Below are positions 1 to 39,700 of a stretch of 64,000 nucleotides of DNA, piece after piece; positions within the stretch are counted from its first letter, which is position 1; every line of letters begins with the position of its first letter. Made by a program: the position numbers and the translations under genes. The notes under the pieces were generated by a model, which was given only the letters and a program-made list of their open reading frames with translations, ran no database searches and was not told where the DNA came from. The stretch is from Pristiophorus japonicus (Eukaryota), in NCBI RefSeq assembly GCF_044704955.1, contig NC_091991.1:147622001-147686000 (forward strand), read 5' to 3'.

Positions 1-1318
1 CGGGACTTGATGCGAGTTAGGACATGAGCAGCTGAGTTTTGGATCACCTCTGGTTTATGTAGGGTAGAATGTGGGAGGCCAGCCAGGAGTGCGTTGGAGT
101 AGTCAAGTCTAGAGGTAACAAAGGCATGGATGAGGGCTTCGGTAGCGGATGAGCTGAGGTAAAGGCGGAAACGGGCGATGTTACGGAGATGAAATTAGGG
201 GGTCTTAGTTATGCTGCGCATGTGACCCCGAAAGCTCATTTCAGGGTCAAATATGACACCAAGGTTGCGAACAGCCTGGTTCAGCCACAGACAGAAGTTG
301 GGGAGAGGGAGGGAGTCAGTGGCTAGGGAACGGAGTTTGTGGCGAGGACCAAAAACAATGACTTCGGTCTTCCCAATATTCAATTGGAGAAAATTTCTGC
401 TCATCCAGAACTAGATGTCGAACAAGCAATCTGACAATTTAGAGATCGTGGAGAGGTCAAGAGAAGTGGTAGTGAGGTAGTGCTGGGTGTCATTAGCGTA
501 CATGTGGAAACTGACCCTGTGTTTTCGGATGATGTCGCCAAGGGGCAACATGTAGATGAGAAATAAGAGGGGCCAAGGATAGATCCTTGGGGGACACCAG
601 AGATAACAATGCAGGGGCGGGAAGAGAAGTCAATGCAGGTGATTCTCTGGCTATAATTAAATAAATAAGAATGGAACCAGCTGGATGACGGTGGAGAGGT
701 ATTGGAAAAGGATAGAGTGGTCAACCGTGTCAAAGGCTGCAGACAAGTCAACAAGGATGAGGAGGAATAGTTTGCCTTTGTCACAATCACAAATGACATC
801 ATTTGTGACTTTGATGAGAGCTGTTTTGGTACCGTGGCAAGCCCGGATTGGAGGGATTCAAACATGGAATTGCGGAAAAGATAGGCATGGGTTTGGGAGG
901 CAACAACACGTTCAAGGACTTTGGAGAGGAAAGGGAGGTTGAAGATGGGGCAGTAGTTTGCAAGGATGGAGGGATCGAGTGTTGGTTTTTTGGGGAGAGA
1001 GGTGATGATGGCAGATTTGAGGGAGAGGAGGACAGTACCTGAGGAGAGAGAACTGTTAACAATGTCAGCAAACATGGGAGCCAGAAAAGGAAGTTGGGTG
1101 GTCAGCAATTTGGTGGGAATAGGGCCAAGGGAGCAGGAAGTGGGTCTCATGGACAGGATCATGAGGGGAGATCGGAGAGAAACTAGAGAAAGATGTGAGG
1201 TCAGGGCTAGAGCAGGGGGCTTCCTTAGAGGAAGGTGAGCTAGGGGCAGGAAGAGAAGAATCAGAGGCGGCCGAACAGATGGTCTCAATCTTAGAGACAA
1301 AGAAGTCAATGAGCTCCT
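1..1318 (-). mobile_element. L2-clade LINE fragment (RT region)
   Basis: Frameshifted RT peptides (KKPTLDPSILANYCPIFNLPFLSKVLERVV, SGVPQGSILGP, LQLNIGKTEVIVFG, RNLGVIFD). Confidence 0.9.
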
Positions 1319-1576
1319 TGTAATGTCCTTACACACTACTATAAATTCACACGAGGCACATTCTGCAGACAAGGTCACTCTGTGACCTGAACCCTTATTC
1401 ACAGTACCAAGAAGTGATGACCCTGCGTGGGACCTCCCTTTATATACCTGGATGACCAGGTGAGGAGTGTCTCCCACAAGTTCACCTCCTATGATCAAGG
1501 TGTGCATTTCTTAGGTGTACACAGTATGCAGTGTTATTATGAAGGTTACAGTTACATGAAGGTTACATACATGACA
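1319..1576 (-). repeat. 3' LTR of Gypsy A
   Basis: TGTAATGTCC...CATGACA; adjacent purine tract (minus strand) at 1577-1597; aligns with 6660-6906. Confidence 0.85.
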
Positions 1577-3413
1577 TCACCTCCCCCCCACCCCCCCAAC
1601 ATCTTTTGGGGTCAAAGATTAAGTCTTTCAGGTGGTCGATGCTCTCTCGTGGAACGCCACAGTTGGGGCTCTGGTTGTTGAGCCTTGGCATGCGTCTCTG
1701 TCACCTGTGGTGATTCCAGCTTGTCCGGGCTGGCTGCAGGGATTGTGCATGCTGCATGCTGCTGCATGTTCTTGTTGCTCATTCACTGGCAATGGTGTGG
1801 GCAACATCTCATGATCTTCCTCAGGTTCCTCAGTGTCCATGCTGAACCTTTTTTTTACTTGGTCTAGATGCTTGTGGCACATCTGTCCATTGTTAAGTCT
1901 GACCACTATGACCCTATTCCCCTCTTTGCCAATGACAGTACCCTCAAGCCACTTGGGCCCCAAAGCGTGATTAAGAACAAATACAGGGTCATCGATTTCT
2001 ATACATCTCCCATTTGAGTTATGGTCATGGCACTCATTTTGGGACTGGCGCTTGCCCTCAACAATGTCTGACAGGACAGGATGACTACCCGGCTGCCCCA
2101 TAGTAGGCAGTCGGCTTGGATGGAGAGCTCATCCATCCGTCTGTGAAACGGTCTGACCTCCTCGAGGCATGCTCCGTGTGCGGGCGCCCAATCCCCAGTC
2201 AGGACACATTTCTTAATCAAGTATAGGAGGGGATCTCTGTTGGACCAGATTTTGATCTCGCGGGCTGTGATGGGGGAGCCTGCGCTGTCAAAGGCATCGA
2301 CAGCCATGACCATCTCAGCGCCTTGCTCCGCTGCCCCCTCAGTGGTGGCCAGTGGAAGCCTGCTGAGCGCGTCAGCACAATTTTCAGTGCCGGGCCGGTG
2401 CCGGATGGAGTAATCATAAGCAGCCAGCGTGAGAGCCCATTGCTGTATGCGAGCTGATGTGTTGGCATTGACAGCCTTGCTGTCTGACAACAGGGATGTT
2501 AATGGCTTGTGGTCCGTCTCTAATTCAAACTTCCTACCAAAGAGGTACTGATGCATTTTTTTTTACACCATAGACACATGCAAGCACTTCCTTCTCGACC
2601 GTCCCATATCCATGTTCTGCTTGAGAGCGCGACCTGGAGGCATAAGCCACAGGTTGTAGTTGACCCTCGGCATTGCCCTGCTGCAAAACGCACCCAACCC
2701 CATAGGACGATGCATCACATGTCAGAACCAATTTTTTTACAGGGGTCGTACAGGGTCAACAACTTGTTTGAACAAAGTAGGTTTCGCACCCGATCAAAAG
2801 CCCGTTCCTGACAGTCCCCCCAAAACCAATTGCAACCCTTACGCAGGAGCACGTGTAGCGGCTCCAACAACGTGCTCATGTTCGGCAGAAAGTTCCTGAA
2901 ATAGTTTAACAGTCCCAGGAATGAACGCAACTCCGATGTGTTGCAGGGTCTAGGTGTTCGTTGAATCGCCTCTGTTTTGGATTCGGTGGGCCGAATCCCA
3001 TCTGCAGCAACCCTCCTGCCCAGAAACAACCTCAGGAGCGAAGAACACACATTTAGACTTCTTGAGTCGCAGGCCTACCCGGTCCAGTCAGCATAGCACC
3101 TCCTCCAGGTTGTGGAGGTGTTCCTCGCTGTCTTGACCCATGATGAGGATGTCGTCCTGGAATACGATCGTTCCAGGAATGGATTTAAGCAAGCTTTCCA
3201 TGTTTCGTTGAAAAATCGCGGCGACTGATCGAATGCCAAACGGGCACCTGTTATAAATGAATAGTCCCTTGTGCGTGGTGATCAGTAGTTTAGATTCGTC
3301 AGCCAGTTCTTGGGTCATGTAGGCTGAAGTGAGGTCCAACTTGGTGAACAGCTTGCCGCCTGCCAGAGTGGCGAAGAGGTCCTCCGCTCTCGGGAGCGGG
3401 TATTGATCTTGTA

Positions 3414-4906
3414 TTGACTCTGGATCAGTTCCTATGGAGTGGAGGGTAGCCAATGTAACCCCACTTTTTAAAAAAGGAGGGAGAGAGAAAACAGGGAATT
3501 ATAGACCGGTCAGCCTGACATCGGTAGTGGGTAAAATGATGGAATCAATTATTAAGGATGTCATAGCAGTGCATTTGGAAAGAGGTAATATGATAGGTCC
3601 AAGTCAGCATGGATTTGTGAAAGGGAAATCATGCTTGACAAATCTTCTGGAATTTTTTGAGGATGTTTCCAGTAGAGTGGACAAGGGAGAACCAGTTGAT
3701 GTGGTATATTTGGACTTTCAGAAGGCTTTCGACAAGGTCCCACACAAGAGATTAATGTGCAAAGTTAAAGCACATGGGATTGGGGGTAGTGTGCTGACGT
3801 GGATTGAGAACTGGTTGTCAGACAGGAAGCAAAGAGTAGGAGTAAATGGGGACTTTTCAGAATGGCAGGCAGTGACTAGTGGGGTACCGCAAGGTTCTGT
3901 GCTGGGGCCCCAGCTGTTTACACTGTACATTAATGATTTAGACGAGGGGATTAAATGTAGTATCTCCAAATTTGCGGATGACACTAAGTTGGGTGGCAGT
4001 GTGAGCTGCAAGGAGGATTCTATGAGGCTGCAGAGCGACTTGGATAGGTTAGGTGAGTGGGCAAATGCATGGCAGATGAAGTATAATGTGGATAAATGTG
4101 AGGTTATCCACTTTGGTGGTAAAAACAGAGAGACAGACTATTATCTGAATGGTGACAGATTAGGAAAAGGGGAGGTGCAAAGAGACCTGGGTGTCATGGT
4201 ACATCAGTCATTGAAGGTTGGCATGCAGGTACAGCAGGCGGTTAAGAAAGCAAATGGCATGTTGGCCTTCATAGCGAGGGGATTTGAGTACAGGGGCAGG
4301 GAGGTGTTGCTACAATTGTACAGGGCCTTGGTGAGGCCACACCTGGAGTGTTGTGTACAGTTTTGGTCTCCTAACCTGAGGAAGGACATTCTTGCTATTG
4401 AGGGAGTGCAGCGAAGGTTCACCAGACTGATTCCCGGGATGGCGGGACTGACCTATCAAGAAAGACTGGATCAACTGGGCTTGTATTCACTGGAGTTCAG
4501 AAGAATGAGAGGGGACCTCATAGAAACGTTTAAAATTCTGACGGGGTTAGACAGGTTAGATGCAGGAAGAATGTTCCCAATGTTGGGGAAGTCCAGAACC
4601 AGGGGTCACAGTCTAAGGATAAGGGGGAAGCCATTTAGGACCGAGATGAGGAGGAATTTCTTCACCCAGAGAGTGGTGAACCTGTGAATTCTCTCCCACA
4701 GAAAGTTGTTGAGGCCAATTCACTAAATATATTCAAAAAGGAGTTCGATGTAGTCCTTACTACTAGGAGATCAAGGGGTATGGTGAGAAAGCAGGAATGG
4801 GGTACTGAAGTTGCATGTTCAGCCATGAACTCATTGAATGGCGGTGCAGGCTAGAAGGGCCGAATGGCCTACTCCTGCACCTATTTTCTATGTTTCTATG
4901 TTTCTA
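3414..4906 (+). mobile_element. 5'-truncated CR1 (HER1-like) LINE inserted antisense in Gypsy A RT
   Basis: 417-aa RT ORF (NYRPVSLTS, YLDFQKAFDKVPH, FADD); 3' tail (TTTCTATG)n. Confidence 0.95.
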
Positions 4907-6659
4907 CCCGATTGATGGTGGCCTTGTAGTCGCCTCAGATCCTGGCAGAGCCATCCGCTTTTAGGACGGGAACGCTGGGGCTCGCTCAGTCGCTGAATTT
5001 AACAGGCAAGATGATGCCCTCTCTCAACAGCCGATCCAATTCGCTCTCGACCTTTTCCCGTATCACATACGGCACCGCTCTGGCTTTGTGGTGCACTGGC
5101 CTGGCATCCGGGGTGATATGTATCACTTCTTTAGTGCCTTTGAAAGTCCCAACGCCAGGTTGGAATAGTGAATCGAATTGTTGTAGGACTTGTGAGCACG
5201 AACTTCGCTCCACAGATGACATTGCATGAACATCCCCCCATTTCCAGTTCATCTCGGCTAACCAGCTCCTCCCCAACAGTGCGAGACCATTACCCGGGAC
5301 AATCCAGAGCGGCGGCCAATTCACTAACCCATTGTGTGTGACAGCCAACATTGCACTATCTAGCACCGGAATGATTTCTTTAGTGTAAGTCCGTAACTGT
5401 GTCTCAATACGTGCTAATTTGGGTCTACTGGCTTTAAGTGGCCATAGCTTCTCAAATTGCTGAACGCCCATGAGTGATTGGCTGGCCCCAGTGTCCAGCT
5501 CCATGCGTACTGGGATACTGTTTATTAAAACCCTCATCATCATTGGTGGTGTTTTGGTGTATGAATTGAATATTCGCCACATGGACCCGCTGAACCTCGG
5601 CGTCCATCGATTTGCCCCAAAAGTCATCCTGCTTCAAAGACCCCTCTTCTGGTCCATCCACCTCATATATTAGTCTGGTTGCAGACTTCCTGCACATTTG
5701 AGCTAAGTGGCCACTGAGATTTCAATTCCTGCAGACAAACTGTTGAAGTCTGCAAGATCTAGCTGAGTGTTTTCCCCCACACCTCCAGCATGAGTTCAAG
5801 TTTCCATTGTTGGGAACAAAGGGACTATGGACAGGCATTCTGCGCTGACTGACCCTTTGACTGCTTTTAAGTACCCTATTAGTGGGTGTCAATAGCCCCA
5901 TCCCGGGCCGCATTGTCCACTGTGATGGCGTGAATGTCCGTTCAGCCTGCCATTGTCTCTGTTGAAGTCCTACTCTGGGGTCTATTGCTGCCTGGGGAAT
6001 GTCGGACTGCCTCTGCCTGCCTGCGGGGCTCTGAGTCACATTGATGATGTTGACTCCCTGATCCATCGCCACGTGAGAGGCAGCATTGCACGCTTATATT
6101 ATTTTCGTCTCTTCCTCCCGCGTCATGAAAGTTTGAGCTATCAACACCGCCGCTTCCAAGGTCAAATCCTTGGTCTCAATTAATTTGCGGAAAATTCCCG
6201 CATGACCGATGCCCTCGATAAAGAAGTCCCTTAGCATCTCCCCCCCTGCAGATGTCTGTGAACTTAGAGGCTGGCCAAACGCTGGTGGTCCGCTACAAAG
6301 TCCAGTATGCTCTGTCCTTCACGACGTCGGTGGGTGTAGAATCTGTGTCGGCCCATATATATGCTACTCGCTGGTTTGAGGTGCTCGCTGATCAATTTGC
6401 TTAGTTCTTCAAAGGTTTTGTCCGCCGGCTTTTCAGGTGTTAGTAAGTTCTTCATGAGTGCGTAAGTCTTTGGTCCGCAGCTGGTCAAAAGATGAGCCCT
6501 TCGCTTGTCGGCCGCTGCATCCCCCAGCCATTCTTTCGTAACGAAGCTTTGCTGAAGCCTCTCGACAAAATCGTCCCAGTCTTCCCCAACACAGTACCAT
6601 TCCTCTGTGCTACCGGTGGCTATTCTCGTGGGCCGTGAATTCCCGTTTCTCGTCACCAA

Positions 6660-6906
6660 TGTAAGGTTCTTACTCTACAGTATGAAACCACATGAGGCAC
6701 GTTCTGGGGACAAGGTCACTCTGTGACCCTAACTCTTTATTCACAGGACTCCAAAGACGATGCCCCTGCGTGGGACTTCCCTTTTTATACCTGTGTGATC
6801 AGGTAAGAGTGTCTTCCACAAGTTCACCCCTTGTGGTCAAGGTGTGCATCTAGGTTGAGTGTATGCAGTAATACAGTGGTGTTACATTGCGGTTTCATAC
6901 ATGACA
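6660..6906 (-). repeat. 5' LTR of Gypsy A
   Basis: TGTAAGGTTC...CATGACA; followed on minus strand by a tRNA-Ser(GCU)-type PBS. Confidence 0.85.
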
Positions 6907-9900
6907 ATCACTATACCAGGATGTGTACTGTGTAACTCACGCACAAATTTCTCTCTTCCTTTCTTAGGCATTACAACTCGATTGCCCCACAATATGCAAT
7001 CTGCTTGAATAAACAGTTCGTCCTTGCGACAAATGTATGGTTTGGCCTCCTCACACATTTGCTTAGGTATGGCAGACCAATCCCTTTGAGGATGCAACCC
7101 TTTACCACCGATAATACCGGGTCCTGGCTGGTCCACATCTTAACTTGTTGAGCCGTGACAGGGGTACCTTCACTCTCATTAAATCTGCTGGTTGTAGCGT
7201 TTCCACCTCCGGTGTGGGCAACGGCAACCGGCTCAAAGCATCGGCACAATTCTCTGAGCCAGGTCTTTGGCGAATGACATAATCATAGGCAGATAATGTC
7301 AGCGCCCACCTTTGGATGCGGGATGAAGCGTTGGTATTGATATCTTTGCTCTCGGAAAACAATGAAATGAGCGGCTTGTGATCGGTCTCTAGTTCAAACC
7401 TCAGACCGAACAGATATTGATGCATCTTTTTAACACCGTACACACATGCTAATGCTTCTTTTTCTACCATGCTGTAGACAAACTTTTGGATGCATACACG
7501 ACAGGTTGAAGTTTCCCTGACTCATTGGCTTGTTGGAGTACGCAACCAATTCCATATGATGATGTGTCACAGGACAAAACTAAACATTTACATGGGTCAT
7601 AATGTACCAGAAGCTTGTTTGAGCAAAGCAGATTGGGGTCTTTCTCGAAAGCTCTGTCTTGCAATGCACCCCACACCCAGTTGTCGCCTTTTCCCAATAG
7701 CATGTGCAGTGGTTCTAGTAAGATGCTCAATTTAGGTAGGAAGTTACCAAAGTAGTTGAGTAGACCCAGGAATGAACGCAGCTCCGTCACATTCTGCGGC
7801 TTGGGTGCATTCTTGATGGCCTTGGTTTTCATGTCAGTAGGTCTGAAGCCATTAGCGGCGATTTTCCTCCCGAGCAATTCGACCTCTGGTGCCATGAAGC
7901 CGCACTTCGAGCATTTCTATCGGAGTCCCACTCTATCCAAATGCAGAAGAACATCTTCCAGGTTGTTAAGATGTTCCTTGGAGTCACGACCGGTGATCAG
8001 GATGTCATCTTGGAACACGATGGTTCTGGGAATGGACTTCAGTAGACTTCCATATTCCTCTGGAACATTGCTGCAACTGAGCGAATTCCGAAAGGGCACC
8101 TGTGGTAAATAAACAGTCCTTTGTGCGTGTTAATGCACGCACTTTTCGGGTTAGAGATCGGTGGTTAGTGATGTGCCACAGGGATCGGTGCTGGGACCAC
8201 AACTGTTTACAATATACATAGATGACCTGAAAGAGGGGACAGGGTGTAGTGTAACAAAATTTGCAGATGACACAAAGATTAGTGGGAAATCGGGTTGTGT
8301 AGAGGACACAGAGAGGCTGCAAAGAGATTTAGATAGGTTAAGCGAATGGGCTATGGTTTGGCAGATGGAATACAATGTCGGAAAAAAAACAGTAAAAGGC
8401 AATATTATTTGAATGGGGAGAAATTACAACATGCTGCGGTGCAGAGGGACCTGGGGTCCTTGTGCATGAATCCCAAAAAGTTAGTTTGCAGGTGCAGCAG
8501 GTAATCAGGAAGGCGAATGGAATGTTGGCCTTCATTGCGAGAGGGATGGAGTACAAAAGCAGGGAGGTCCTGCTGCAACTGTACAGGGTATTGGTGAGGC
8601 CGCACCTGGAGTACTGCGTGCAGTTTTGGTCATCTAACTTAAGGAAGGATATACTAGCTTTGGAGGGGGTACAGAGACGATTCACGAGGCTGATTCCGGA
8701 GATGAGGGGATTACATTATGATGATAGATTGTGTAGTCTGGGTCTTTACTCGTTGGAGTTCAGAAGGATGAGGGGTGATCTTATAGAAACATTTAAAATA
8801 ATGAAAGGGATAGACAAGATAGAGGCAGAGAGGTTATTTCCACTGGTCGGGGAGACTGGAACTAGGGGGCACAGCCTCAAAATACGGGGGAGCCAATTTA
8901 AAACCGAGTTGAGAAGGAATTTCTTCTCCCAGAGGGTTGTGAATCTGTGGAATTCTCTGCCCAAGAAAGCAGTTGAGGCTAGCTCATTGAATGTATTCAA
9001 ATCACAGATAAATAGATTTTTAACCAATAAGGGAATTAAGGGTTATGGGGAGCGGGCAGGTAAGTGGAGCTGAGTCCACGGCCAGATCAGCCATGATCTT
9101 GTTGAATGTCGGAGCAATCTCGAGGGGCTAGATGGCCTACTCCTGTTCCTAATTCTTATGTTCTTATGTTCTTATGTAAGTCTCTTCGACGTCTCGACCA
9201 ACTCCTGTGTCATATAGGCTGACGTCAAGTCCAGTTTTGTGAATGACTTCCCTCCGGCTCGCATCACAAACAAGTCATCAGCCTTCAGTAATGGGTACTG
9301 ATCTTGTTTCGAAACCCTATTGATCATAGCCTTGCAGTCTCCACAGATTTTGACTGTGCCATCACTTTTCAGCACAGAAACAATGGGCCCATTCATTAAA
9401 TTTGACTGGTGATATGATCCCTTCATGCTGGAGTCTGTCCAGTTCAATTTTGACCTTCTCCCTCATCATATATGGCACTGCCTGAGCTTTATGATGGACG
9501 GGTCTTGCATCTGAGTCTACGTGAATCTACACCTTGGCTTCCGTGAAGTTGTTGATATCCGGTTCGATCAGCGAGGGGAACTTGCTCAATACTTGGGCAC
9601 ATGTATCTTCCTCCGACGACAACGCCTTTATGTTGTTCCAGTCGCATCTGATTTTCTCCAATCAGCTCCTGCCGAGCAGTGTTGAGCCATTGTCTGGAAC
9701 AATCCACAGCGGTAACTCGTGAACCGTACCGTTATACAACACATTAATTTGTGCACTGCCGATCACCTTTATCAGTTCTTTGGTGTACGTGCGCAGCTTG
9801 GTGTTAACAGGGCTCAGCCTGGGCCTCACAGTCTTCGTATCCCACAGCTTATTAAATGCCCTCTTGTTCATAATCGATTGACTCGCCCCTGTGTCCAGTT

Positions 9901-11073
9901 CCATCGATACCGGTATCCCGTTAAACTTCACGTTAATCAAAATTGGTTTACTCTTGGTTATGAAGGAGTACAGTCCATACATTTCCTCCTCTGGCATCTC
10001 GGATTGCGTATCCAGATATGCGCTAGTCTGACTCTCATCCTCCACGTGGTGTGTCGCAGCTCACTTGCTCATCTGCGGACACTTGTGCTGGAGATGCCCC
10101 ACTCTCAGATAACCTTTGCAACTATATTGCTTAAATCGGCACCGCTGATGCCGATGATTTCCCCCACAATGCCAACACGGAGAAGTCGGATACATTCCCG
10201 CTGGCGGACTTTGGGCAGCCACAGGTTTCGCAAACGCAGCCGGATAGGCTCTGCCGAACGCCGAATCAATCACATTTACAGTACTTGCCGAGGTTCGGTT
10301 CATCACCGCTATTTGCTTTAAATTCCTGTCCGTCGTCATACATGATTGAGCGATCTGGATGGCCCTTTTTAAATCCAACTCCTCCACCACCAGAAGTTTA
10401 CACAGGATCACCTCGTGGTTGATACCGGTAACAAAGAAGTCCCGCAGCATGTCTGCCAACACCGTTCTGAATCTGCACGGTCCCACTTGACGTCTCAGGT
10501 CGGCAACGAATTCCGCCGCACTCTGGCCCTCCGATCGAACGTGTGTATAAAACCTGTATCTCGAAATGATGATGCCGTTGTCTGGCTTGAGGTGCTCCCG
10601 TACCAATGTACACAACTCCTCGTACGTTTTCTCTGTTGGATCACTAGGCATGAGTAGATTCTTTATCAGACCGTAGACCTTTGAACCGCACACAGTGAGG
10701 AACACGGCCCGGCGCCGATCTGCATCGCTGACCCCCTTCATTTTGTTGGCCACAAAGTACTGGTTCAAACAGCTCACAAAGTCTACCCAATCTTCTCCCT
10801 CCACGAATTGCTCTAAAAATCCAATCATGCTCATTTTGCAAACAAAGGTTCTTGTATTCTCGTCGCCAAATGTCATGTATGCAATAAAGGTACAAAGTGA
10901 GTACTGTTTAACTGAACAAGGTACAATCTTGTTCATGCTTTATTACGGCCCAAAGTGCCTGACTCACAAAATGGCTGGCCTTTGATACCAGAGCAGCACC
11001 ATGTGTGTGCTGCTCAGTGGCCTCCAACAATGACACCATCTGGTGGCTACAAACAGCATGTACACACATGGCA
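6907..11073 (-). mobile_element. Gypsy (Mag-like) LTR retrotransposon B; 3' end lost, CR1 inserted
   Basis: 5' LTR 10871-11073; PBS TGGCGACGAG; gag 10061-10936 (CWHCGGNH), PR LDTG, RT FQDD, RNase H; integrase start (LHSTHPGIV) cut at 6907. Confidence 0.92.
8140..9178 (+). mobile_element. 5'-truncated CR1 LINE inserted antisense in Gypsy B RT
   Basis: RT C-terminus (VRPHLEYCVQFW...); tail (TTCTTATG)n. Confidence 0.93.
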
Positions 11074-11409
11074 ACTGCAAAAATACACTGGGACTCGATT
11101 CTGATTAGGTTTCCCCAAGATGAAGTGTGGTGAAGACATACGGTTTCTCTATGGAGTTAGCATGACCAATAGCCACTCGTTCCTAGGTCTGGTGTGCCAA
11201 AGTGTCCTTTCTCATCACTGTCACCTGGTGAGTGAGTGACACACTCTCACATTTTAGTTCAAACCATGCCGTGAAGTTCGAGCGGTCAAACTATAATCGA
11301 GTGCTGCACAGAACAGGTTCCAGAACCATGCTCAGTATATTGCAAAACTTACTGCAGCTTAAAAAAAAGGCTTAAAAATGTCAGAGGAAATGTATATCAG
11401 ACATAAATT

Positions 11410-11522
11410 TCTCCACATTACAACAGTGACTACACTACAAATGTACTTCATTGGCTGTAAAGTGCTTTGAGATGACCGGTGGTCGTGAAAGGCGCTATAT
11501 AAATCCAAGTCTTTCTTTTTTT
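11410..11522 (+). mobile_element. SacSINE1/DeuSINE-type SINE 3' fragment
   Basis: Matches the tail of the full copy at 29703-30144 in reverse complement. Confidence 0.7.
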
Positions 11523-11559
11523 CATAAATGAATTAAACTTTTGTTTTCAAGCCTACAAC

Positions 11560-11850
11560 AATAATTTGTATTTATATAGTGCCCTTAACGCAGTAAAACA
11601 TCCCAAGGCGCCTCACAGAAGTGTTAACAAAATTTGACACATAGACACATAAGGAGATATTAGGGCAGATGACCAAAAGCTTGGTCGAAGAGGGAGGTTT
11701 TAAGGAGTGTCTTAAAAGGAGGATAGAGAGGCGAAGAGGTTTAGGGAGGGAATTCCAGAATTTAGCACCTAGGCAACTGAAAGCCCGGCCGCCAATGGTG
11801 GAGGGATTAAAATCGGGGATGTGCAAGAAGCTAGAATTAGAGGAGTGCCT
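11560..11850 (-). mobile_element. L2 3' end fragment
   Basis: TIGGRAFSCLGAKFWNSLP peptide plus L2-type tail shared with 20630, 26735, 52640 and 59295. Confidence 0.75.
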
Positions 11851-12226
11851 AGTGGTGCTTAGTGTTAATAGTTTTCCAGGAATTCAGTTTCATATATGTG
11901 CCGTGATAAGTGTGATGGTAGGATTACATCCTATATCTGGACCTACAGTTTATTTTGTATTAGTTTCACTTTTTTTTAAAGTGAGGATTTGCACACAATT
12001 TGCGGTGTGAGTCCAGTCTACGGTTATGTTATAAGCAGTCTCAGATCTGTAAGATCTGGTGCTGTGGAGCTCAGCTCAAGTTATATGCCAGCCATACCAG
12101 CACTGAGTTCAATGGTGGAGGAGCTCTACATGTGTACTCAATGGTCGACTGAGGTTTCTAAATGTCAGACAGTATCTGGGTGGGTCTGCTTTCTCTGGAC
12201 ACAAACGTTGAAATACAATGTTTATA

Positions 12227-12678
12227 CCAAAGTAGGGGATCCCCATTCATACTTATGGCAATTTTGTATGTATGGAGCTGCCATAAGTATGAATGGGAAT
12301 ACCACCAAAAACACAGAAACATGAAAAATAAATTTAAAAAAACACATTACATATTTAAAACTAATTAAAATGCAACTGAATTTAATATTTTAAACAAAAA
12401 ATAACTTTTTTGATTTTTTTTAAATGTGTTTTAACAGGGCTAAGAATAAACTTACCTTAATGGACAGGGTTTTTTTTAATACCTGTATATAAATACATGA
12501 TAACATTTTATTTTTCTAATTTTTAAAACTCTTACACTGCTTTTACCAGAGTAAGAATTTCAAGGACATTCACTGGGCAGGGCCCAACTCTCCGCCCGCC
12601 CAAACCTGAAACTTGTGCAGCACCTACGGGCACATGCGCACCTCGTACGTGCCCGTAGGGGCCGCAAATTCAGGCCCT
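12227..12678. mobile_element. Truncated Harbinger-type MITE (one terminus)
   Basis: Ends GCAAATTCAGGCCC; similar to 29040-29700; absent from the paralogous segment at about 17310. Confidence 0.55.
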
Positions 12679-12714
12679 ATGTTTATATAAAATGTGCAGC
12701 AGTTTGTAGTTATA

Positions 12715-13643
12715 CATAAGAACATAAGAACATAAGAAATAAGAGCAGGAGTAGGCCATACGGCCCCTCGAGCCTGCTCCGTCAGTCAATACGATCATGG
12801 CTGATCCGATCATGGACTCAGGTTCACTTCCCTGCCCGCTCTCCATAACTCCTTATTCCCTTATCGTTTAAGAAACTGTCTATTTCTGTCTTAAATTTAT
12901 TCAATGTCCCAGCTTCCACAGCTCTCTGAGGCAGCGAATTCCACAGATTTACAACCCTCTGAGAAGAAATTTCTCCTCATCTCAGTTTTAAATGGGTGGC
13001 CCCTTATTCTAAGATTATGCTCTCTAGTTCTAATCTCCCCCATCAGTGGAAACATCCTCTCTGCATCCACCTTGTCAAGCCCCCTCATAATCTTATACGT
13101 TTCGATAAGATTACCTCTCATTCTTCTGAATTCCAACGAGTAGAGGCCCAACCTACTCAACCTTTCCTCATAAGTCAACCCCCTCATCTCCGGAATCAAC
13201 CTAGTGAACCTTCTCTGAACTGCCTCCAAAATAAGTATACCCTTATGTAAATATGGAAACCAAAACTGCACGCAGTATTCCAGGTGTGGCCTCACCAATA
13301 CCCTGTACAACTGTAGCAAGCCTTCCTGATCACTTGCTGTGCCTGCATACTAACCTTTTGTGTTTCATGCACAAGCACCCCCAGATCCCGCTGTACTGCA
13401 GCACTTTGCAATCTTTCTCCATTTAAATAATAACTTGCTCTTTGATTTTTTCTGCCAAAGTGCATGACCTCACACTTTCCAACATTATACTCCATCTGCC
13501 AAATTTTTGCACACTTACTTAGCCTGTCTATATCCTTTTGCAGATTTTTTGTGTTCTCCTCACACATTGCTTTTCCTCCCATCTTTGTCTCATCGGCAAA
13601 CTTGGCTACGTTACACTCGGTCCCTTCCTCCAAGTCATTAACA
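12715..13643 (-). mobile_element. CR1 LINE fragment
   Basis: RT C-terminal ORFs 12897-13696; (CATAAGAA)n tail on plus strand. Confidence 0.9.
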
Positions 13644-14079
13644 TACTGAACCCATCTGTAAATTGAAGCAACATAGCTACACAACCTCAGTCTCATGGTT
13701 CAGGAAAAACTTCTTTACTCAGAGAGGTTAGAATGTAGAACTTGCTACGATATTCTACCAGTTTATTTTTACTCGTTCATGGGATGTGGACATTGTTAGT
13801 AAGACCAGCATTTATTGCCCATCCCTAGTTGAAGCAAATAGCATAGATGCATTTAAGGGTAAGCCACACAAGTACATAAGAGAGAAAGGAATAGAAGGAT
13901 ATGTCAGTGATGGTAAGGAGATGCATGTGTCAGTAATCTCTTTCTTTTTGCAGACCTTGCTGACCATTCTGGTCAGAGTTGCTTATTTAATGGATTAATC
14001 CTTCCATCAGTCAATAGGGAGACGGTTTCCTGCTGGAGAGGATCTAATTGGACGCTGCGCCTACCATACAAGCCCCTTT

Positions 14080-15295
14080 AAGAACATAAGAATTAGGAGC
14101 AGGAGTAGGCCTTTTGGCCCCTCGAGCCTGCTTCGCCATTCAACAAGATCATGGCTGATCTTCTACCTCAACTCCACTTTCCTGCACTATCCCCATAATT
14201 TCAAAAATGTATCGATCTCGGTCTTGAATATACTCAACGACTGAGCATCCAGAGCCCTCTGGGGTAGAGAATTCCAAAGATTCACCACCCTCTGAGTGAA
14301 GAAATTTCTCCTAATCTAAGTCCTAAATGAACGATCCCTTATTCTGAGACTGGGACACCTGGTTCTAGACTCCCCAGCCAGGGGAAACATCCTCCCTGCA
14401 TTTACCCTGTCAAGCCCTGTAAGAATTTTGTATGTTTGAATGAGATCACCTCTCATTCTTCTAAACTCTAGAGAATATAGGCCTAGTCTACTCAATGTCT
14501 CCTCATAGGACAATTCCCCATCCCAGGTATCAGTCTGGTGAACCTTCGCTGCGCCATCTCTATGGCAAGAACATCTTTCCTTAGGTAAGGAGACCAAAAC
14601 TGTACACAATGCTCCAGGTGTGGTCTCACCAGGACCCTATATAATTGCAGTAAGACATAGTTATACTCAAATCCTCTTGTAATAAAGGCCAACATACTAT
14701 TTGCTTTCTTAATTGCTTGCTGTACCTGCATGTTAACGTTCAGTGATTGGTGTACAAGGACACCCAGGTCCCTCTGAACACCAACATTTCCCAATCTCTC
14801 ACCATTTTAAAAATACTCTGTTTTTCTATTTTTCGTACCAAAGTGGATAACTTCACATTTTTCCACATTATATTCTATTTGCCATATTCTTGCCCACTCA
14901 CATAGTCTGTCTAAATCCCCTGGAAGTCTCTTTACATCATCCTCACAACTTACATTTCCACCTAGCTTTGTATAATCAGCAAACTTGGATATATTACATT
15001 TGGTCCCCTCATCCAAATCATTGATATAGATTGTGAATAGCTGGGGCCCGAGCACTGATCTTTGCAGTACCCCACTAGTTACAGTCTGCCAACCCGAAAA
15101 TGGCCTGTTTATTCCTATTCTCTGTTTTCTGTCTGTTAACCAATCCTCAATCCCTGATGGTATATCACCGCCAATCCCATGAGTCCCAATTTTGTTTAAT
15201 AACTTCACGTGTGGCACCTTCTGAAAATCCAAATGCACCACATCCACTGGTTCCCCCCTTATCTATTCTGCTAGTTACAATGTCAAAAAACTCTT
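14080..15295 (-). mobile_element. CR1 LINE fragment
   Basis: Degenerate RT ORFs 14316-15247; CR1 tail at 14080. Confidence 0.9.
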
Positions 15296-15299
15296 TAGG

Positions 15300-15480
15300 G
15301 ATTTAGGCATTGAGGGACTGAGAGATTGTGGGTTGGAGGGACAAAGGGATTGAGGTCAGAGGGATTGTGGGAATGATGGACTGAGTGCACTGAGGGATTG
15401 AGGATCTAGGGAATTGAGGGACTGAGGGATTGAGTTATTAGGGACTGAGGGAATTGAGGTTGTAGGGCACAAGGGGATTC
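15300..15480. repeat. Degenerate short tandem repeat (GAGGGA[C/T]TGAG-like units)
   Basis: Repeated tgaggga/ggattg motifs. Confidence 0.55.
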
Positions 15481-15919
15481 AGTACAAAATCTTCCCACAC
15501 ATAGGTCTATAAAAGTTACAAGCCTTCGCTTGAAATATTTGTTGAGCATTTGTGGCCTCTTCCATTTCATTGTGATTACTTCTACAGAACTGATCAAATC
15601 AAGTTAAAAAAAAATCTATAAAACTGCATAAATGCAATTTAAGTTTCCAAATTCTTAACTGTTGATCCCAAATATTCTCCCGAATCATTGATGGCTTTTC
15701 ACATCCATCCATCTTTGGGCTGTTTAAAATGTGATAACTCCAACAAAAATAGCAGAGAAACAGAGATACTGCTTGTCCCCCAGAGGTGGGTTAAAGAATG
15801 GGAGTAACCACTCAATATATACAACCATATATCCCTTAATATAAAACCATACATTTTAAAGGTCACATTCACTAAACTGTTATTTACATTCAAGTTGCTC
15901 AGAGAAGTCTGTTCCTTTA

Positions 15920-16190
15920 GATATAAAAACAGATAGTGCTGGAAATACTTAGCAGGTTAGGTAGCATCTGTGGAGAGAGAACCAGAGTTAAGGTTTCAGG
16001 TCGATGTCCCTCAGTCAGAAATGGAAAAAGTTAGAGATGTAACAGGTTTTTAAGCAAGTGCCGTGTTCAGGAAAAGAGGTGGAGGGGGAAGAGCTAGAGA
16101 GAGAGTGGAGGAAAGATCAAACGAGAAGGTCTGTGAAAGGGTGCAAGGCAGAAGAGATTAAGAGACAAGAGTCTCTTTTCAAGTTCGTTA
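15920..16190. mobile_element. Penelope-like element terminal fragment
   Basis: AAAACAGA.A.TGCTGGAAATACT.AGCAGG...GCATCTGTGGAGAGAGA motif recalled from shark PLE ends; related pieces at 16560-16662 and 20940-21030. Confidence 0.5.
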
Positions 16191-18477
16191 CCAGGTCGCT
16201 GCCTATAAAGACCAGAGCAATGCTTCCCCTGCTGTTAGGAAGCTCATGCTTTGCATTGGAGATTGTCAACAGCCCCTTACAGGGATCAGCACTCTGACAG
16301 TGTTAAATCAGGGACCGAATTAGACCCCGGAACCTGCACTCGCCGCTGCATTTACCCATACGCGAGTTAGTCATTTAAAAAGTGACACAGTGAAAAGTTT
16401 TATTATTTATTCAATGTGGAAATACTCTACAGCAAACATTGAAATACATCTTTGTGACAAAGGGTCTCATTTTTTGGGGGGCGTCAACGTATAATTCCAG
16501 ACAGATTTCTTTGCCTGAAATAAATAGAAACTGATCAAATAACATTGGCTGATCAAAAGCAAAATGCTGCCGGACGCTGGAAAACCGAAATATAAACACA
16601 AAAAGATGGAAATACTCAGATCCTACTCCAGATGCTGACTATTTCCAGCATTTTCTGTTTATAAATACAATTGGCTTATGGTGACATTTTTATCATGTTA
16701 TTTGCCGATTGCAGATTTGTTCGTTACAAGTGAAAGATTTAAACTCGGACGAAGATTAGGCAATTAAATCCGAAGACATTAAAACTCCTAATTTAGGTGA
16801 TATTGCTATTATTTACTGAAAGCTCTTAGTCACCACGAGTATATAAGCAAATTACTGCAAATCGAAATGTGGAATGCATTTTAGCAATAGTTTGCATCAA
16901 AATATAACAACTTACTTTTCTTAGTGTCTAGTCTCTTGACACGGTGCTGTTGGTTCCCAGTGCTGAATGGCAGCTCCAGACATGGGGCTGGTTCGTTTGG
17001 AAGTGCAACTTCAAAAATACACTGGAACTTGACTCCGATTGAGTTTCCCCAAGATGAAGTGTGGGGAAGACATACGGTTTCTTTATGGAGTTAGCATGAC
17101 CTCATCTCGTGGCCACTCGTTCCAAAGTCTGATGTGCCAAAGTGTCGTATCTCATCGCTGTCACTTGGCGAGTGAACGACACACTGAGCTCGATGGTGGA
17201 GGAGCTCTGTCCATGAGCACACAATGACCGACTGAGGGTTCTAAATGTCAGACAGTATCTGGGTGGGTCTGCTCTCTCTGGATACTAAAACGTTGAAATA
17301 CAATATTTATAAAAAATATGCAGCAGACTGTAGTTATACTGCAAATTGAAGCAACACAACCTCAGTCTCACAGTTCAGAGAGGTTAGAATGTAGAACTTG
17401 TCACTACAGGGAGTTTATTTTTATTCGCTCATGGGATGTGGGCGCCAGTAATGCCAGCATTTATTGTCCATCCCTAGTTGAGGCAAATCGCATAGATGCA
17501 CTTAAGGGTAAGCTACAGAAGTACATGAGAAAGGAAAAGGATCTGCCAGTGATGGGAAGGAGATGCAGGTAGCAAGAGCGTCAGTAATCTTTTTTTGGGG
17601 GGAGGGGGGGACCTTGCGGACTATTCTGGTCAGGGTTGCTTATTTAATGGATTAATCCTTGCATCAGTCAGTAGGGAGACGGTTTCCTGCTGGAGAGGAT
17701 CTAATTGGACGCTGCACCTGTAAGGCCTAAAAATAGCTCAGCGGCTGTTAGGTGCTTCTTAGAGCTCTCATCAGTTGTTTCCACCTGGACCCCAAGTAAA
17801 CCATGAGCTGAAAATGAACAAACGTGTATAGTTGTGATTTGTTGAAACTTTCTTTTAGTCTCCATTTTTAATTGCATTTTCTCTGCTTGCAGAGACCAGC
17901 ATGGCTTCATCAATATTTGGTAATAACCAGCAGGAACTGCACAAGACTCTAGAATTTTATTTCTCCATTTCACTGCTTTCTCTTGCCAAAGATGAGAATA
18001 GGTAGTTGTTACATGGTGAAGTCACTAACATTTTGCAGCATAATAGCCACCCCGACTAAAATTGTTCATTGAGTAAAAAATCCTCGCTTTAGATATTACC
18101 AGTGAGCTCCTCGAGGGCAGTCGGTGGAAACGATGAGTGGGGTACATACTAATTATGAAACAAAGGTTTTTTCTCTCTTTTCATGACCATGCATGTGTGT
18201 GGGGTGAGGTGGGGGCACAGGAGAATGGTGCTGACGTTACACGGTGCTGAAATGGGACAAGCTTGATGGCCTTTCCTTTCCTGCCCATTTTTCTAAATTT
18301 ATAGGGTTCAGTACCAAGACATCCTAAACAAAATCTCATGCAGTGCTTCGGCCTGATTTATGCAATCGGTAAGTGTTAGAAAGTTTTGATTTAAAAAAAA
18401 ATCAATCTATTCCAGTATTCCGTTAGCATTTTTAGTGGTAGAGCAAATGTGAGAGAATGGGAACTTGATCATGCCTC

Positions 18478-19950
18478 TACAGGGTCTTAAAAGAAATGGC
18501 TGCAGAGATACTGGATGCATTGGTTGTGATCTTCCAAAATTCCCTGGATTCTAGAACAGTCCCAGTGGATTGGAAAACTGCAAATGTAACACCCCTATTT
18601 AAAAAAGGAGGCAGGAAAAAAACAGGAAACAATAGACTAGTTAGCCTAACATCTGTCGTTGGGAAAATGCTGGAGTCCATTGTTAAGGAAGCATAATTCA
18701 ATTAAGCAGTCAGCATGATTTTACGAAAGGGAAATCAAGTTTGACAAATTTGCTGGAGTTCTGAGGATGTAATGAGAAGGGTAGATAAGGGGGGACCCAG
18801 TGGATGTGGTGTATTTGGATTTCCAGAAGGCATGCGATAAGGTGCCACATAAAAGGTTACTGCACAAGATAAAAGTTCACGGGGTTGGGGGTAACTAACT
18901 AACAGAAAACAGAGAGTCGGGATAAATGGGTCATTTTCCAGTTGGCAAACAGTAACTAGTGGGGTGCCACAGGGATCGGTGCTGGAGCCTCAACTATTTA
19001 CAATCTATATTAATGACTTGGATGAAGGGACAGAGTGTAATGTTGCAAAGTTTGCTGATGATACAAAGATGGGTGGGAAAGCAAATTGTAAGGAGGACAC
19101 AAGAAATCTGAAAAGGGATATAGACAGGCTAAGTGAGTGGGCAAAGATTTGGCAGATGGGGGTATAATATGGGAAAGTGTGAGGTTATACACTTTGGCAG
19201 AAAAATACAAAATTAAATATTAATTTAAATGGAGAAAAATTGCAAAGTGCTGCAGTACAGAGGGACTTGGGGATCCTTGTGGATGAAACACAATCAGTGA
19301 GTATACAGGTACAGCAAGTAATCAGGAAGACAAATGGAATGTTGGCCTTTATTCCAAGGGGGATAGAGTATAAAAGCAGAGAAGTCCTGCTACAACTGTA
19401 CAGGGTATTGGTGAGGCCACATCTGGAGTACTGCGCACAGTTTTGGTCTCCGTATTTAAGGAAGGATATACTTACATTGGAGGCTGTTCAGAGAAGGTTC
19501 ACTAGGTTGATACCGGAGATGAGAGGGTTGACTTTTGAAGATAGGCTCAACCTATACTCATTGGAGATCAGAAGAACGAGAGGTGATCTTATCAAAACAT
19601 GCAAGATAATGAAGGGGCTAGACAAGGTGGATGCAGAGAGAATATTTCCACTCATAGGGGAAACTAAAACGAGGGGACATAGTCTCAGAATAAGGGGCCG
19701 TCCATTTAAAACTGAGATGAGGAGGAATTTCTTCTCAGGGTTGTAAATCTATGGAATTCTCTGCCCCAGAGAGCTGTGGAGGCTGGGTCATTGAATATAT
19801 TTAAGGCGGAGATAGACAGATTTTTGAGCGATAAATGGTTATGGGAAGCGGAGCTGAGTCCATGATCAGATCAGCCATGATCTTATTAAATGGCAGAGTA
19901 GGCTCGAGCGGCTAGGTGGCCTACTCCTGCTCCTATTTCTTATGTTTTTA
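18478..19950 (+). mobile_element. CR1 LINE fragment, degenerate
   Basis: RT ORF pieces 18496-19746; CR1 3' tail. Confidence 0.9.
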
Positions 19951-20629
19951 TATATGAACAACAGGTCTGGGGTATGTGATAACCAGTTAACCCAAGTACT
20001 TACTGTACTATAAACAAAGCGTAGCATAGAGGCAAAGGCTGAAAAGATTATAAGCTGCGGCCTCAGCTAAACAATGCATTACGTAAGCACAGGCCAAGGT
20101 TGTATTTATAATATATGAATAAAACCAGTTCTTCTTTAACTTCAGGGCTTTCGAGGGTCAGGTGCAATGCAGCCATACCAGGGCCTGGAGAGTGGTCACT
20201 CCAGGATGTGTGTTGTTCTCAGACATCAGAGAGTGTTGTCAGAGGTAGTCGGAGTCTGGGAACCAAGTTGTATTATTTGCATGTCATTTAGTATAAATGG
20301 AAGACTAAATCAGTTACTGAAATAAAGCTTTTTTTAATAAAAGCCACTGTGCGTGAATTCTAAGTGGAGTTATTGTCGGCGGACTAACAACCCTTTGTTG
20401 CGACGGTAACCAATAAGAAATCCGCTGACAGTAAGCATTCATCCTGCACCAGAAATGGAGCATTGGTTCCCAGACTGAAATAAGGGCAATACCATTCAGC
20501 CCTTTACTCCACAAGCCTACTTTTATTCGACTGTACAGTAGATGCTCAGCTGGATACACTTGGTTGACTAAACCTATTCAAGTCAGCCAAGCTAGCCATC
20601 AGATGACCAACTCCTAGATCTGAAAATTA

Positions 20630-36700: not shown

Positions 36701-39700
36701 CTACCACAAATGCTTGATTTGACACCTAGTTCTCCCATGTAAAATATTTTGATAAACACTACTGTGCACGTGGAAGATATTAAACTCACTCCGTAGGCAT
36801 GTAAAGAATTCAGAAAACAATTTAGTATTAAGACTTGCATTGAAATTTAAAGACAGTTATGTATAAACCCTCAGAACTTTACAAATATGCGCTCGCAACA
36901 TTACTGGGAGCACACTGTAAACAGAAAGTGCTGCTGCATCAATATTAAATGCTATTATTTCATCAGACCAGATACATATGGTCTCATATAAAAACATGTA
37001 ATCAGCACCTTACCTGGCAAATAATTCCTGCAACGTATTCGGAATTTCAATATTTCCAGATCCAATTGCAGAGCTGAATTTCTGCCTCAGTCTTGCTACA
37101 AATTCTTTAAACTCCTCTGCACAAACCTGTGCAATTTAAAGTAGTTGTTTCAACACAAGAGTATCTGGCTTCAAAGACACAGTGTACAGACAGGTGCCAT
37201 CCACAAATAGCACAGAAGGAATTAAAAAACACCCAGACCCCTCCAGCCATGGTCAAGCATGGTCCACCAACAGATTAGCAGTCCATTAGAAGAATCTTTG
37301 AACATTCCTCAGGCAGACCTCAGCATCACCAGCTCAAGGCAGTGTAAAATCCTTGGGTTGGCCATTTTTGTCCAACATGGATCCAGACAACTTGGGCTGG
37401 AATTTTCATCTTTGCATCGGGTTGGGTGTGCATGGGCGGCGTAGTGGGTCCGAAACGCGCTGCTTGGAGCAACTTTCACTTAATGACCCCAATTGAAAGT
37501 CATGCGGGCCCCATTAGATGCTATGGGTCTGATATCATCGATGACTCATGTTATGTAATGATGTGTGTATCGTCCCAGTACCTTAAATATAATGTGGTAG
37601 GAAACCTGGAAGTACCTAGAGCAGGCACTATATAAGGCTGACCACCACACCTGAGAAGCACTCTGGAGCTGAACAATAAAGGACAAAGGTCACAGCAGTT
37701 AGACTTATACCAGACCGTGTGGAGTCAGTGATTTGTGTGCTAGATACACCACATTGGCGACTAGGAAGCGGACGAACTCCACGCAACCATGGCTACTCTG
37801 GCTCGCTAAAGGATTTTACCGTGGGCAATGACTGGGAGGCCTTCACGGAAAGGCTCGAGTACTACTTCACAGCAAATGACCTGACGGAGGACACATACGC
37901 AATGAGAGAGAAGCGTAAGGCGATATTGCTGTCCAGTTGTGGAGATGAGGTTTACTGTCTCGTCAGGGATTTGCTGGCACCCGGGCGCGCCATGGACAAG
38001 TCATACGAGGAGCTGACTGAACTCATTCGTGACCAGTTGAAACCGAAGGAGAGCAGCCTCACGGCCAGATACAAATTTTGCCATCACTGCAGACCTGAGG
38101 GCCAGGATATCACCAAATATGCTGCGGACCTCAGGAGACTCGCGGTGCCGTGTGATTTTGGCGCACACCTTGACGAGGCTTTGCGGGACGTTTTTGTTAT
38201 GGGGATTGGTTCGAGGGACTCCTTCACAAGCTGTTAGCCACGGAACCCACAGTCACTCTGACAAAGGCCATCGCCATCGCCGAGCACATATGACCTCGAC
38301 TTGCAGCACCAAGCAAATAATCCACACATTCTTGAACCCGGCAGGCACTGTCCACAGGATAGCGCCCACCACGGACAAAACTGCAGAACGTGGCTCTGCC
38401 CGGGGCAGAGAGCACGGACCTCGGGGTCCTGGAAATCAGAGTCCGCTGAGGGGGCGGCAATCAAGCAGCACCATGCTGGCACTGCGGAGGAAGCCATGAG
38501 GCTCACCGGTGCAGGTTTGCGGAGTACACGTGTAATACCTGTCACGTTAAAGGCCACCTTCAGAAATCGGACTCACCATGTGGCTGAGGAGATGGGGGAC
38601 TGTTCAGCGAGGAGCAGGTATTTGAGGTGTTTGGACTGTACACGTGTACTGTCGATTCGGCCCCAGTGATAATGGAAGTAAAAATCAACGGAGTCCCAGT
38701 GAGTATGGAAGTGGACACGGGCTCGGGTCCGTCGTTGATGAGTCGGAGAACTTTTGATAAACTGTGGATTAACCCAGCTGCACGACCCAAGCTGGTCCCG
38801 GTCACGGTGAAGCTGCGTACCTACACCAGGGAACTAATACCTGTTCTCGGCAGAGCGATGGTGCAGGTATCCCACGAGGACGAGACGCACGGTTTACCTT
38901 TGTGGGTCGTTGCAGGCGATGGGCCGACACTCCTCGGCCGGAGGTGGATGGGGAAGGTCCGTGGGAGCTGGGAAGACTTCATCACTCCACAAGCAGCTGC
39001 TCCCCGGGGTGCTGCCGTGCCCCGGGTCCCCAGAGAGCAGCGCCGACCGAGCTGGAGCTGCAGCCTCAATCCACCCACAGGCAAGTCCCAGCCCCGGACC
39101 TCACACAGAGATCATGCAGCCTCAGCCCCCACAGGCAAGCAGCCCTGCAGAGGGGGGCCTAGTTGGGGGGGGGGGGAAGGGGGGTGAGCCGGCGGGGTGC
39201 GAGCGATCCAGGATGGTCGGCGGATCGGAAGAGCCCCGCCGAGGAAGTTGCCGTTAGGCGGGCCCCGCCGAGGAGCTGTTAGCGTCGGGCGGCGGCAGCA
39301 GCTGGAGGTCGGCGGCCACATGGGAGGCGGCAAGTCAGGTGGCAGCGGAGAGGAGCGGAGGCTGCGACGGCGGAGGGCATCTGGAACGGCGGAGAAGAAG
39401 ATGGCGGCGGCATCGTGTTCAGAGCAACAGAGCATCAAAGATGGCGGCGCCCAAGGAGAAGCCTCGTGGAATCCTCCTGCATCAAAGATGGCGCCTTAAA
39501 AAGGAAATGCACCCGGGAGTCTTAAAAGGGCCTTACCAAGAGGTGGTCCCCACAAAGGACTTCTGTAAGGCAGAGCGAGTCTAAAATGAGCTATGTTAAT
39601 GTGAGATGGCGAATTTATAATAAGAATTAATTTTTTAATGCTGAATGGCCTCTGTATGTGTGTAAAATAATGGATGAAGTACAATTAATGATAAGGGCTA

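Follow-up and report, generated by a model that had tools for sequence, protein, structure and literature searches.

In the genome of Pristiophorus japonicus (assembly GCF_044704955.1), the DNA directly downstream of GTF3C1 carries a series of broken exon-like pieces, and the question that this locus raises is which gene, if any, left them there. The stretch analyzed, referred to as the window, comprises 64,000 nucleotides (nt) of contig NC_091991.1 (positions 147,622,001 to 147,686,000), and all coordinates below are positions within it. The pieces are very probably the remains of a class I cytokine receptor pseudogene. With moderate confidence, they can be assigned to a separate paralogue of the beta-common type (CSF2RB) in the IL4R/IL21R neighbourhood, unprocessed and long dead, with two tandem homology domains (four FN3-type domains). 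What is directly observed comprises the ordered pieces with their stops, two in-frame junctions, a partial duplicate (copy 2, as opposed to the main series, copy 1) and the GTF3C1 neighbour. It is resemblance, splice phases, composition and neighbourhood taken together that make the case, and the cytokine receptor fossil is regarded as probable, not proven. Seven pieces, which lie on the minus strand in several frames and contain stops, make up the main series:

20443-20392, minus strand: putative signal-peptide exon, with an AG acceptor (score 5.1), a phase-1 GT donor and a hydrophobic core.
20255 to about 20130, minus strand: putative first half of domain 1 (1a), with AG at 20256, a guanine plus cytosine (GC) content of 52% and an uncertain 3' end.
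18148 to about 17944, minus strand: putative second half of domain 1, with AG at 18149; its likeness is by eye only and it is the weakest segment.
17807 (or 17784) to 17622, minus strand: putative second half of domain 2 (2b), with an AG acceptor (score 4.4) and a GT donor in both copies.
17284 to about 17150, minus strand: putative first half of domain 3 (3a), with an AG acceptor in frame with the 2b donor, a GC content of 53% and a decayed donor.
17082-16916, minus strand: putative second half of domain 3 (3b), with an open frame, two cysteines 17 apart and a GTAAGT donor.
15623-15491, minus strand: putative first half of domain 4 (4a), with an AG acceptor in frame with the GTAAGT donor and a GC content of only 33%.

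The six peptide snippets from which a preliminary description of this DNA had assembled the receptor were all found on the minus strand, approximately at the coordinates given there, in several frames and with stops. In the signal-like exon, the hydrophobic 12-mer belongs to the top 0.7% of 3242 stop-free 12-mers, and the ATG at 20442 lies one frame off the hydrophobic stretch. Domain 1a keeps its first cysteine, while the second has been removed by a short deletion. The next segment is present, but its start is more likely at the AG-bounded position 18148, about 90 nt upstream of the one proposed earlier; it holds three stops and at least one frameshift, and no donor was identified. The 'YYQ...W' tail attributed to it (about 17937-17850, the last 90 nt) contains no interpretable sequence. 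Most of the first exon of domain 2 is lost, this half of the domain being either collapsed or missing, and an alternative phase-0 acceptor for 2b is found at 17784. The stretch 17284-16916, previously treated as one segment, is likewise present but probably represents two exons separated by a short decayed intron (about 17150-17083). In 3a, CSW is followed by SVSF after a 1-nt shift; together with the two later cysteines, 17 residues apart, CSW makes up what is left of the cysteine pairs of domain 3, the first cysteine of which is not intact. The phase-2 acceptor AG of 3b, located just before the third cysteine of this domain, survives in copy 2 and reads AA in copy 1. Two stops, two frameshifts and a decayed donor characterize domain 4a. 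Altogether, six of the eight expected ectodomain exons are suggested, in order, and a by-eye count gives about nine stops and about ten frameshifts for the whole fossil. The earlier statement that the gene is dead is therefore well founded: if it ever was a gene, it is clearly dead, with exons missing in addition to these lesions. Exons encoding WSxWS, the transmembrane segment and Box1 were not recognized in 1-15490, and they could sit beyond the left edge of the window or be deleted. The region of the expected WSxWS exon is interrupted by satellite, long interspersed nuclear element (LINE) and long terminal repeat (LTR) sequences.

Were these pieces ever exons? In class I cytokine receptors, each FN3 domain is encoded by two exons, with the phase pattern 1-2-1-0-1. 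Phase 1 is seen here at the signal/1a, 2b/3a and 3b/4a boundaries and a phase-2 acceptor for 3b is seen in copy 2, the remaining junctions being decayed. Through natural AG/GT sites, 2b connects with 3a and 3b with 4a in frame, each time in phase 1. For the GTAAGT donor at 16915, the open stretch before it measures 58 codons in phase 1, versus 4 and 1 in the other phases, and the two other GTAAGT sites within 15400-20600 have 25 open codons at most. Moreover, the GC content of the seven pieces (44.9% over 1004 nt) exceeds that of the other non-repeat DNA (39.0% over 2774 nt; p = 0.021, random placement). This contrast resembles that of GTF3C1, with 44.5% in exons versus 36.9% in flanks, domain 4a being the exception. 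The strongest acceptor-like site of the region (score 8.3) is situated on the minus strand at 16514-16400, in the putative 3b-4a intron; the frame behind it bears a faint likeness to the start of a receptor second domain, which is probably due to chance.

The likeness to the beta-common chain was assessed by eye against an alignment of group-4 receptors (PMC1963337, Additional file 7; 23 rows), which begins only at the first cysteine. Four spacings equal those of beta-common, and they occur in the right order. In 2b, the distance from valine to the tryptophan position is 17, with proline at +14, as in the first homology domain of beta-common (cytokine receptor homology domain 1, CHD1), the tryptophan itself being replaced by TGA. 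The other three agree with human beta-common CHD2: tryptophan to SVSF in 3a is 9 after one 1-nt shift, the two cysteines of 3b are 17 apart (7 of 28 residues identical, ungapped), and isoleucine to tryptophan across the 3b/4a junction is 20, with only 3 of 21 identities. In domain 1a, TTHI, SWSD and LHLTL resemble the beta-common CHD1 rows. The match of the N-terminus of domain 1 to CSF2RB comes from the preliminary description and, given where the alignment begins, is kept here as an assumption.

The replacement of the first tryptophan of WSxWS by proline occurs in 4 of the 23 rows of the group-4 alignment, all of them beta-common (PMC1963337 Additional file 7). At the corresponding position, copy 1 reads P-T-D-stop and copy 2 P-I-D-stop, with matching spacing. 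Of the proposed PSxWS motif with a stop at the expected tryptophan, the proline and the stop are seen at the beta-common spacing, and the following serine is lost. These observations bear on the possibility that the pieces are the wreck of single-domain group-4 receptors of the IL21R, IL4R, IL9R or IL2RB type, either a tandem gene pair that a deletion collapsed or a single, internally duplicated gene. The synteny points to IL4R/IL21R, the region is duplication-prone, and the motif YFKRRL of domain 4a is identical in four of six residues to a human IL-2R beta motif; zebrafish, according to the available part of PMC1963337, has two il-4r alpha copies, one of them mutated. However, only beta-common rows show the Pro-type motif, and 2b and 3a are only 337 nt apart and splice in frame, with no signal, transmembrane or tail exon between them. 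This origin is considered improbable, and the least probable of the three alternatives weighed here.

Support for the beta-common-like order proposed in the preliminary description comes from the in-frame junctions, the base composition and the exact motif spacings seen by eye, but from no statistically significant alignment, and several results weigh against a receptor of this type. The frames and frameshifts were picked with the sequence already in view, and adding up alignment scores roughly by hand for a single mammalian chain indicates that amino-acid likeness alone, without splice sites and synteny, is not significant. A simple splice matrix flagged only three of the proposed boundaries, namely the donor at 16915 and two acceptors (20443 and 17807), most boundaries scoring weakly. 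Pfam searches with stop-masked frames (27 frames, 19 frames and 6 pieces) returned no FN3 or cytokine-receptor family, the few matches being below cut-off and unrelated. In the PDB sequence searches, 0, 4, 2 and 0 weak, unrelated matches were obtained, with no cytokine receptor among them; the power of both kinds of search on frameshifted half-domains is low. In a word-index search of 5.8 billion proteins, including those of chimaera and ray, none of the 20 and none of the 581 word-sharing candidates scored, and phmmer, run in full over 1.84 billion proteins, gave 0 matches. Six generic family motifs chained together reached a score of 26 in the region, whereas shuffled sequences averaged 29.8 and 362 of 500 did at least as well; the chain picked sites other than the proposed exons, and its power on a decayed gene is uncalibrated. 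The internal likeness of domains 1 and 3 was not significant either (p = 0.34 and 0.26). The fossil is also oriented head-to-tail with GTF3C1, unlike human IL21R, which faces it.

A significant cytokine-receptor or FN3 alignment, which the preliminary description had made decisive, was thus not obtained from Pfam, PDB or the protein scans, within their limited power. Because the profile searches returned no such family, membership in the beta-common type is not established. The power of the phmmer scan was estimated with simulated indel-free relatives, of which 60/60 were found at 60% identity, 48/60 at 50% and 19/60 at 40%. Because every simulated relative at 60% identity would have been caught, the blank scan makes it unlikely that the library contains a close intact orthologue; the protein searches retrieved no intact orthologue from other chondrichthyans, a distant relative (40% identity) falling mostly below detection. 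One GTF3C1 exon, searched in the 5.8-billion-protein library, returned 100 proteins from 113 candidates, the top named ones being ray and chimaera GTF3C1, and therefore chondrichthyan proteins are present in it. Read-through fusion models of GTF3C1 were absent from these 100 proteins. The best alignment of domains 1a and 3a, though not significant, fell in the expected frames. In the internal repeat test, 1 of 21 pairs reached p < 0.05 and was rejected, its frames differing from the proposed ones. Rfam gave 0 matches, none of 289 pattern matches in metagenomes was confirmed and 0 exact DNA matches were found there, and the 4 of 18 pattern matches in viral contigs that passed did so on a 10-residue stretch only and were rejected as chance. 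A single-sequence fold model was unusable (predicted local distance difference test score, pLDDT, 32.1).

With every database and statistical similarity test blank, about ten frameshifts to be assumed and most boundaries scoring weakly, the likeness might be an accident that comes from reading intergenic DNA, or a repeat that is old and unclassified, with frameshifts chosen at will. For this to be so, however, the in-frame junctions, the phase-specific open frame, the GC enrichment, the four ordered exact spacings and the expected neighbourhood must all coincide, and no further copy exists in the 64 kb save the local duplicate. Chance is the foremost of the alternatives, yet unlikely.

The neighbourhood itself is well defined. 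GTF3C1 is the large minus-strand gene of the window; it is intact, and 17 exons were placed by tblastn with chimaera and ray GTF3C1 proteins. Its end is as follows:

21763-21551, minus strand: last coding exon of GTF3C1 (tblastn, 74-80% identity to chimaera/ray proteins), the intact neighbour, outside the fossil.

The location of the fossil directly downstream of GTF3C1, as first described, is confirmed by this placement. The exons of GTF3C1 are clean, and the lesions are therefore unlikely to be assembly errors; an assembly artefact was rejected on this ground and because stops are common to both copies. A processed pseudogene was rejected as well, introns being present. Synteny in other vertebrates was taken from the supplement of PMC1963337, whose garbled font was decoded with loss of digits. 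There, human IL4R and IL21R are grouped with NSMCE1, JMJD5, KIAA0556 and GTF3C1, which bears out for human the earlier statement that IL4R and IL21R flank GTF3C1. The beta-common gene, by the same supplement, adjoins NCF4/PVALB in human and mouse and pvalb in zebrafish. The CSF2RB-type synteny (NCF4/PVALB) was not observed for the fossil, whose neighbour within the window is GTF3C1; the gene on its opposite side falls beyond the window.

This location is also relevant to the possibility that the fossil is a dead copy of the lineage's own CSF2RB, moved or segmentally duplicated beside GTF3C1, with no ancient separate paralogue. The motif likeness is mostly to beta-common itself, and beta-common genes duplicate and die in mammals, the second mouse copy being a pseudogene in human (available part of PMC1963337). 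A young copy, however, should give a chondrichthyan protein at the detectable 60% identity, and none was retrieved; a chance landing beside a neighbour of IL4R/IL21R is likewise unlikely. Such a copy is therefore considered rather improbable, and a separate, anciently lost beta-common-type gene is preferred.

The age of the loss can be approached through the second partial copy, which was overlooked in the preliminary description and corresponds to 17719-17005 of the main series:

14062-13719, 12715-12679, 12226-12101 and 11245-11071, minus strand: copy 2, four pieces spanning 14062-11071, with insertions of about 1003, 452 and 855 nt.

The two copies differ by 76 substitutions in 668 aligned bases (11% divergence). 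Their shared 97-nt part of domain 2 has identical stops in all three frames of both copies, and the stop of domain 3a is also common; therefore, the duplication took place after the reading frame had been lost. Cartilaginous fishes evolve slowly, as stated in the accessible part of PMC3964593, and a divergence of 11% between already dead copies in such a group suggests that the loss of the gene is old. The 97-nt exon part (17623-17719 versus 13966-14062) is 96% identical between the copies and the adjoining intron 86%; all frames being broken, this contrast may reflect chance or gene conversion. LINE 3' transduction as the origin of copy 2 was rejected, no LINE abutting the source position. 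The segments, which had been described as not derived from transposable elements, are indeed unique within 64 kb save for the local duplicate, but a short intronic piece (17480-17406) is a repeat. Two further features belong to the repeat landscape of the fossil:

18547-19951, plus strand: LINE insertion in a putative intron, with a reverse-transcriptase-like open reading frame (ORF) and many copies in the window.
1-11069, minus strand: nested LTR (Gypsy-like) and LINE elements cutting off copy 2, identified from ORFs and sequence; no further receptor exon was recognized in them.

The element names in 1-11069 (Gypsy-like LTR, LINE) are presumptive. Within this block, 1322-11069 (minus strand) holds a pair of decayed Gypsy-like LTR elements, one interrupted by the other and each with a LINE insertion, atop an older LINE. 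Directly after the last receptor-like piece, at 15311-15467, lies a satellite with an 8-nt unit (61% matches over about 18 copies), and after it a LINE; the satellite marks the boundary between copy 1 and copy 2. The GTF3C1 introns contain Gypsy-like gag and protease remnants, recognized by eye (37680-39500, plus strand), broken ORFs at 41186-43358 which by eye resemble a PIF/Harbinger-type transposon, and a simple-repeat array of 2 kb that is rich in purines and contains two N gaps (54763-56950), the source of long spurious ORFs.

When alive, a gene of this kind would have encoded a type I membrane signalling chain with four FN3 domains, paired with an alpha or gamma chain. The receptor would have bound a short-chain helical cytokine of the IL-3/IL-5/GM-CSF or IL-4/13 family, the former being the one that a beta-common type would serve, and signalled through JAK-STAT. 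Group-4 chains, according to the available part of PMC1963337, carry long tails and take group-5 chains as partners. At present, the stops, frameshifts and missing exons would leave no receptor product. Local duplication of part of the gene followed its death, and transposons inserted into both copies.

Being dead, and known from a single genome, the gene itself serves no function; its value is evolutionary and concerns how the double-domain beta-common chain arose in relation to IL4R, IL21R and IL2RB. The accessible parts of two papers report that the elephant shark has IL-5-family and several IL-4/13 cytokines (PMC4690019) and that the nurse shark expresses an Il21r (PMC10529500). Mapping of the receptor chains for these elephant shark cytokines is poor. 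A double-domain receptor beside GTF3C1 in sharks is not described in the available portions of PMC1963337, PMC4690019, PMC8226699, PMC6238376, PMC7274943, PMC9465101, PMC3295810, PMC3964593 and PMC10529500, and none of the receptor names turned up in a search of the supplement of PMC3964593. No published report of a GTF3C1-adjacent beta-common-like fossil was found in the accessible literature, with database gene annotations and most subscription papers outside its scope; annotations of other shark genomes may already list the fossil as beta-common-like. If the proposed assignment is true, a second beta-common-type receptor was lost long ago, its place beside GTF3C1 ties two receptor clusters to one ancestral pair, and the locus is a concrete spot at which other sharks, rays and chimaeras can be examined for a receptor that is still intact. 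A more tentative and as yet doubtful extension is that genome duplication gave CSF2RB a sister, since lost, and that the fossil is this sister. The ancestor of jawed vertebrates would then have possessed, within the IL4R/IL21R-GTF3C1 cluster, a further beta-common-type chain with four domains, in an arrangement that mirrors CSF2RB-IL2RB; this chain may survive intact in some cartilaginous fishes as an IL-5-family or IL-4/13 receptor, and IL4R may be its halved relative.

Compared with known systems, the fossil resembles IL2RB in the six-residue motif of domain 4a already mentioned, but IL2RB has a single receptor domain and a TST/TMPRSS6/C1QTNF neighbourhood. IL4R and IL21R are group-4 receptors which adjoin GTF3C1 in human, as the fossil does, although they typically have one receptor domain each (available part of PMC1963337) and a standard Trp-type WSxWS. 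Mouse Csf2rb2 (beta IL-3) and its human counterpart, the CSF2RB pseudogene, exemplify, in the same part of that source, a losable duplicate of a beta-common-type gene; they are, however, in tandem at the CSF2RB locus, whereas the fossil is elsewhere and far more decayed. CSF2RB itself differs from the fossil in being alive and in adjoining NCF4/PVALB rather than GTF3C1; the fossil has no significant alignment to it, and its domain 2 first half and everything past the first half of domain 4 were not found. Nevertheless, the fossil resembles CSF2RB in having a putative signal exon followed by pieces that suggest the order of two tandem receptor domains, in the putative Pro-type WSxWS position of the first pair and, by eye, in four spacings.

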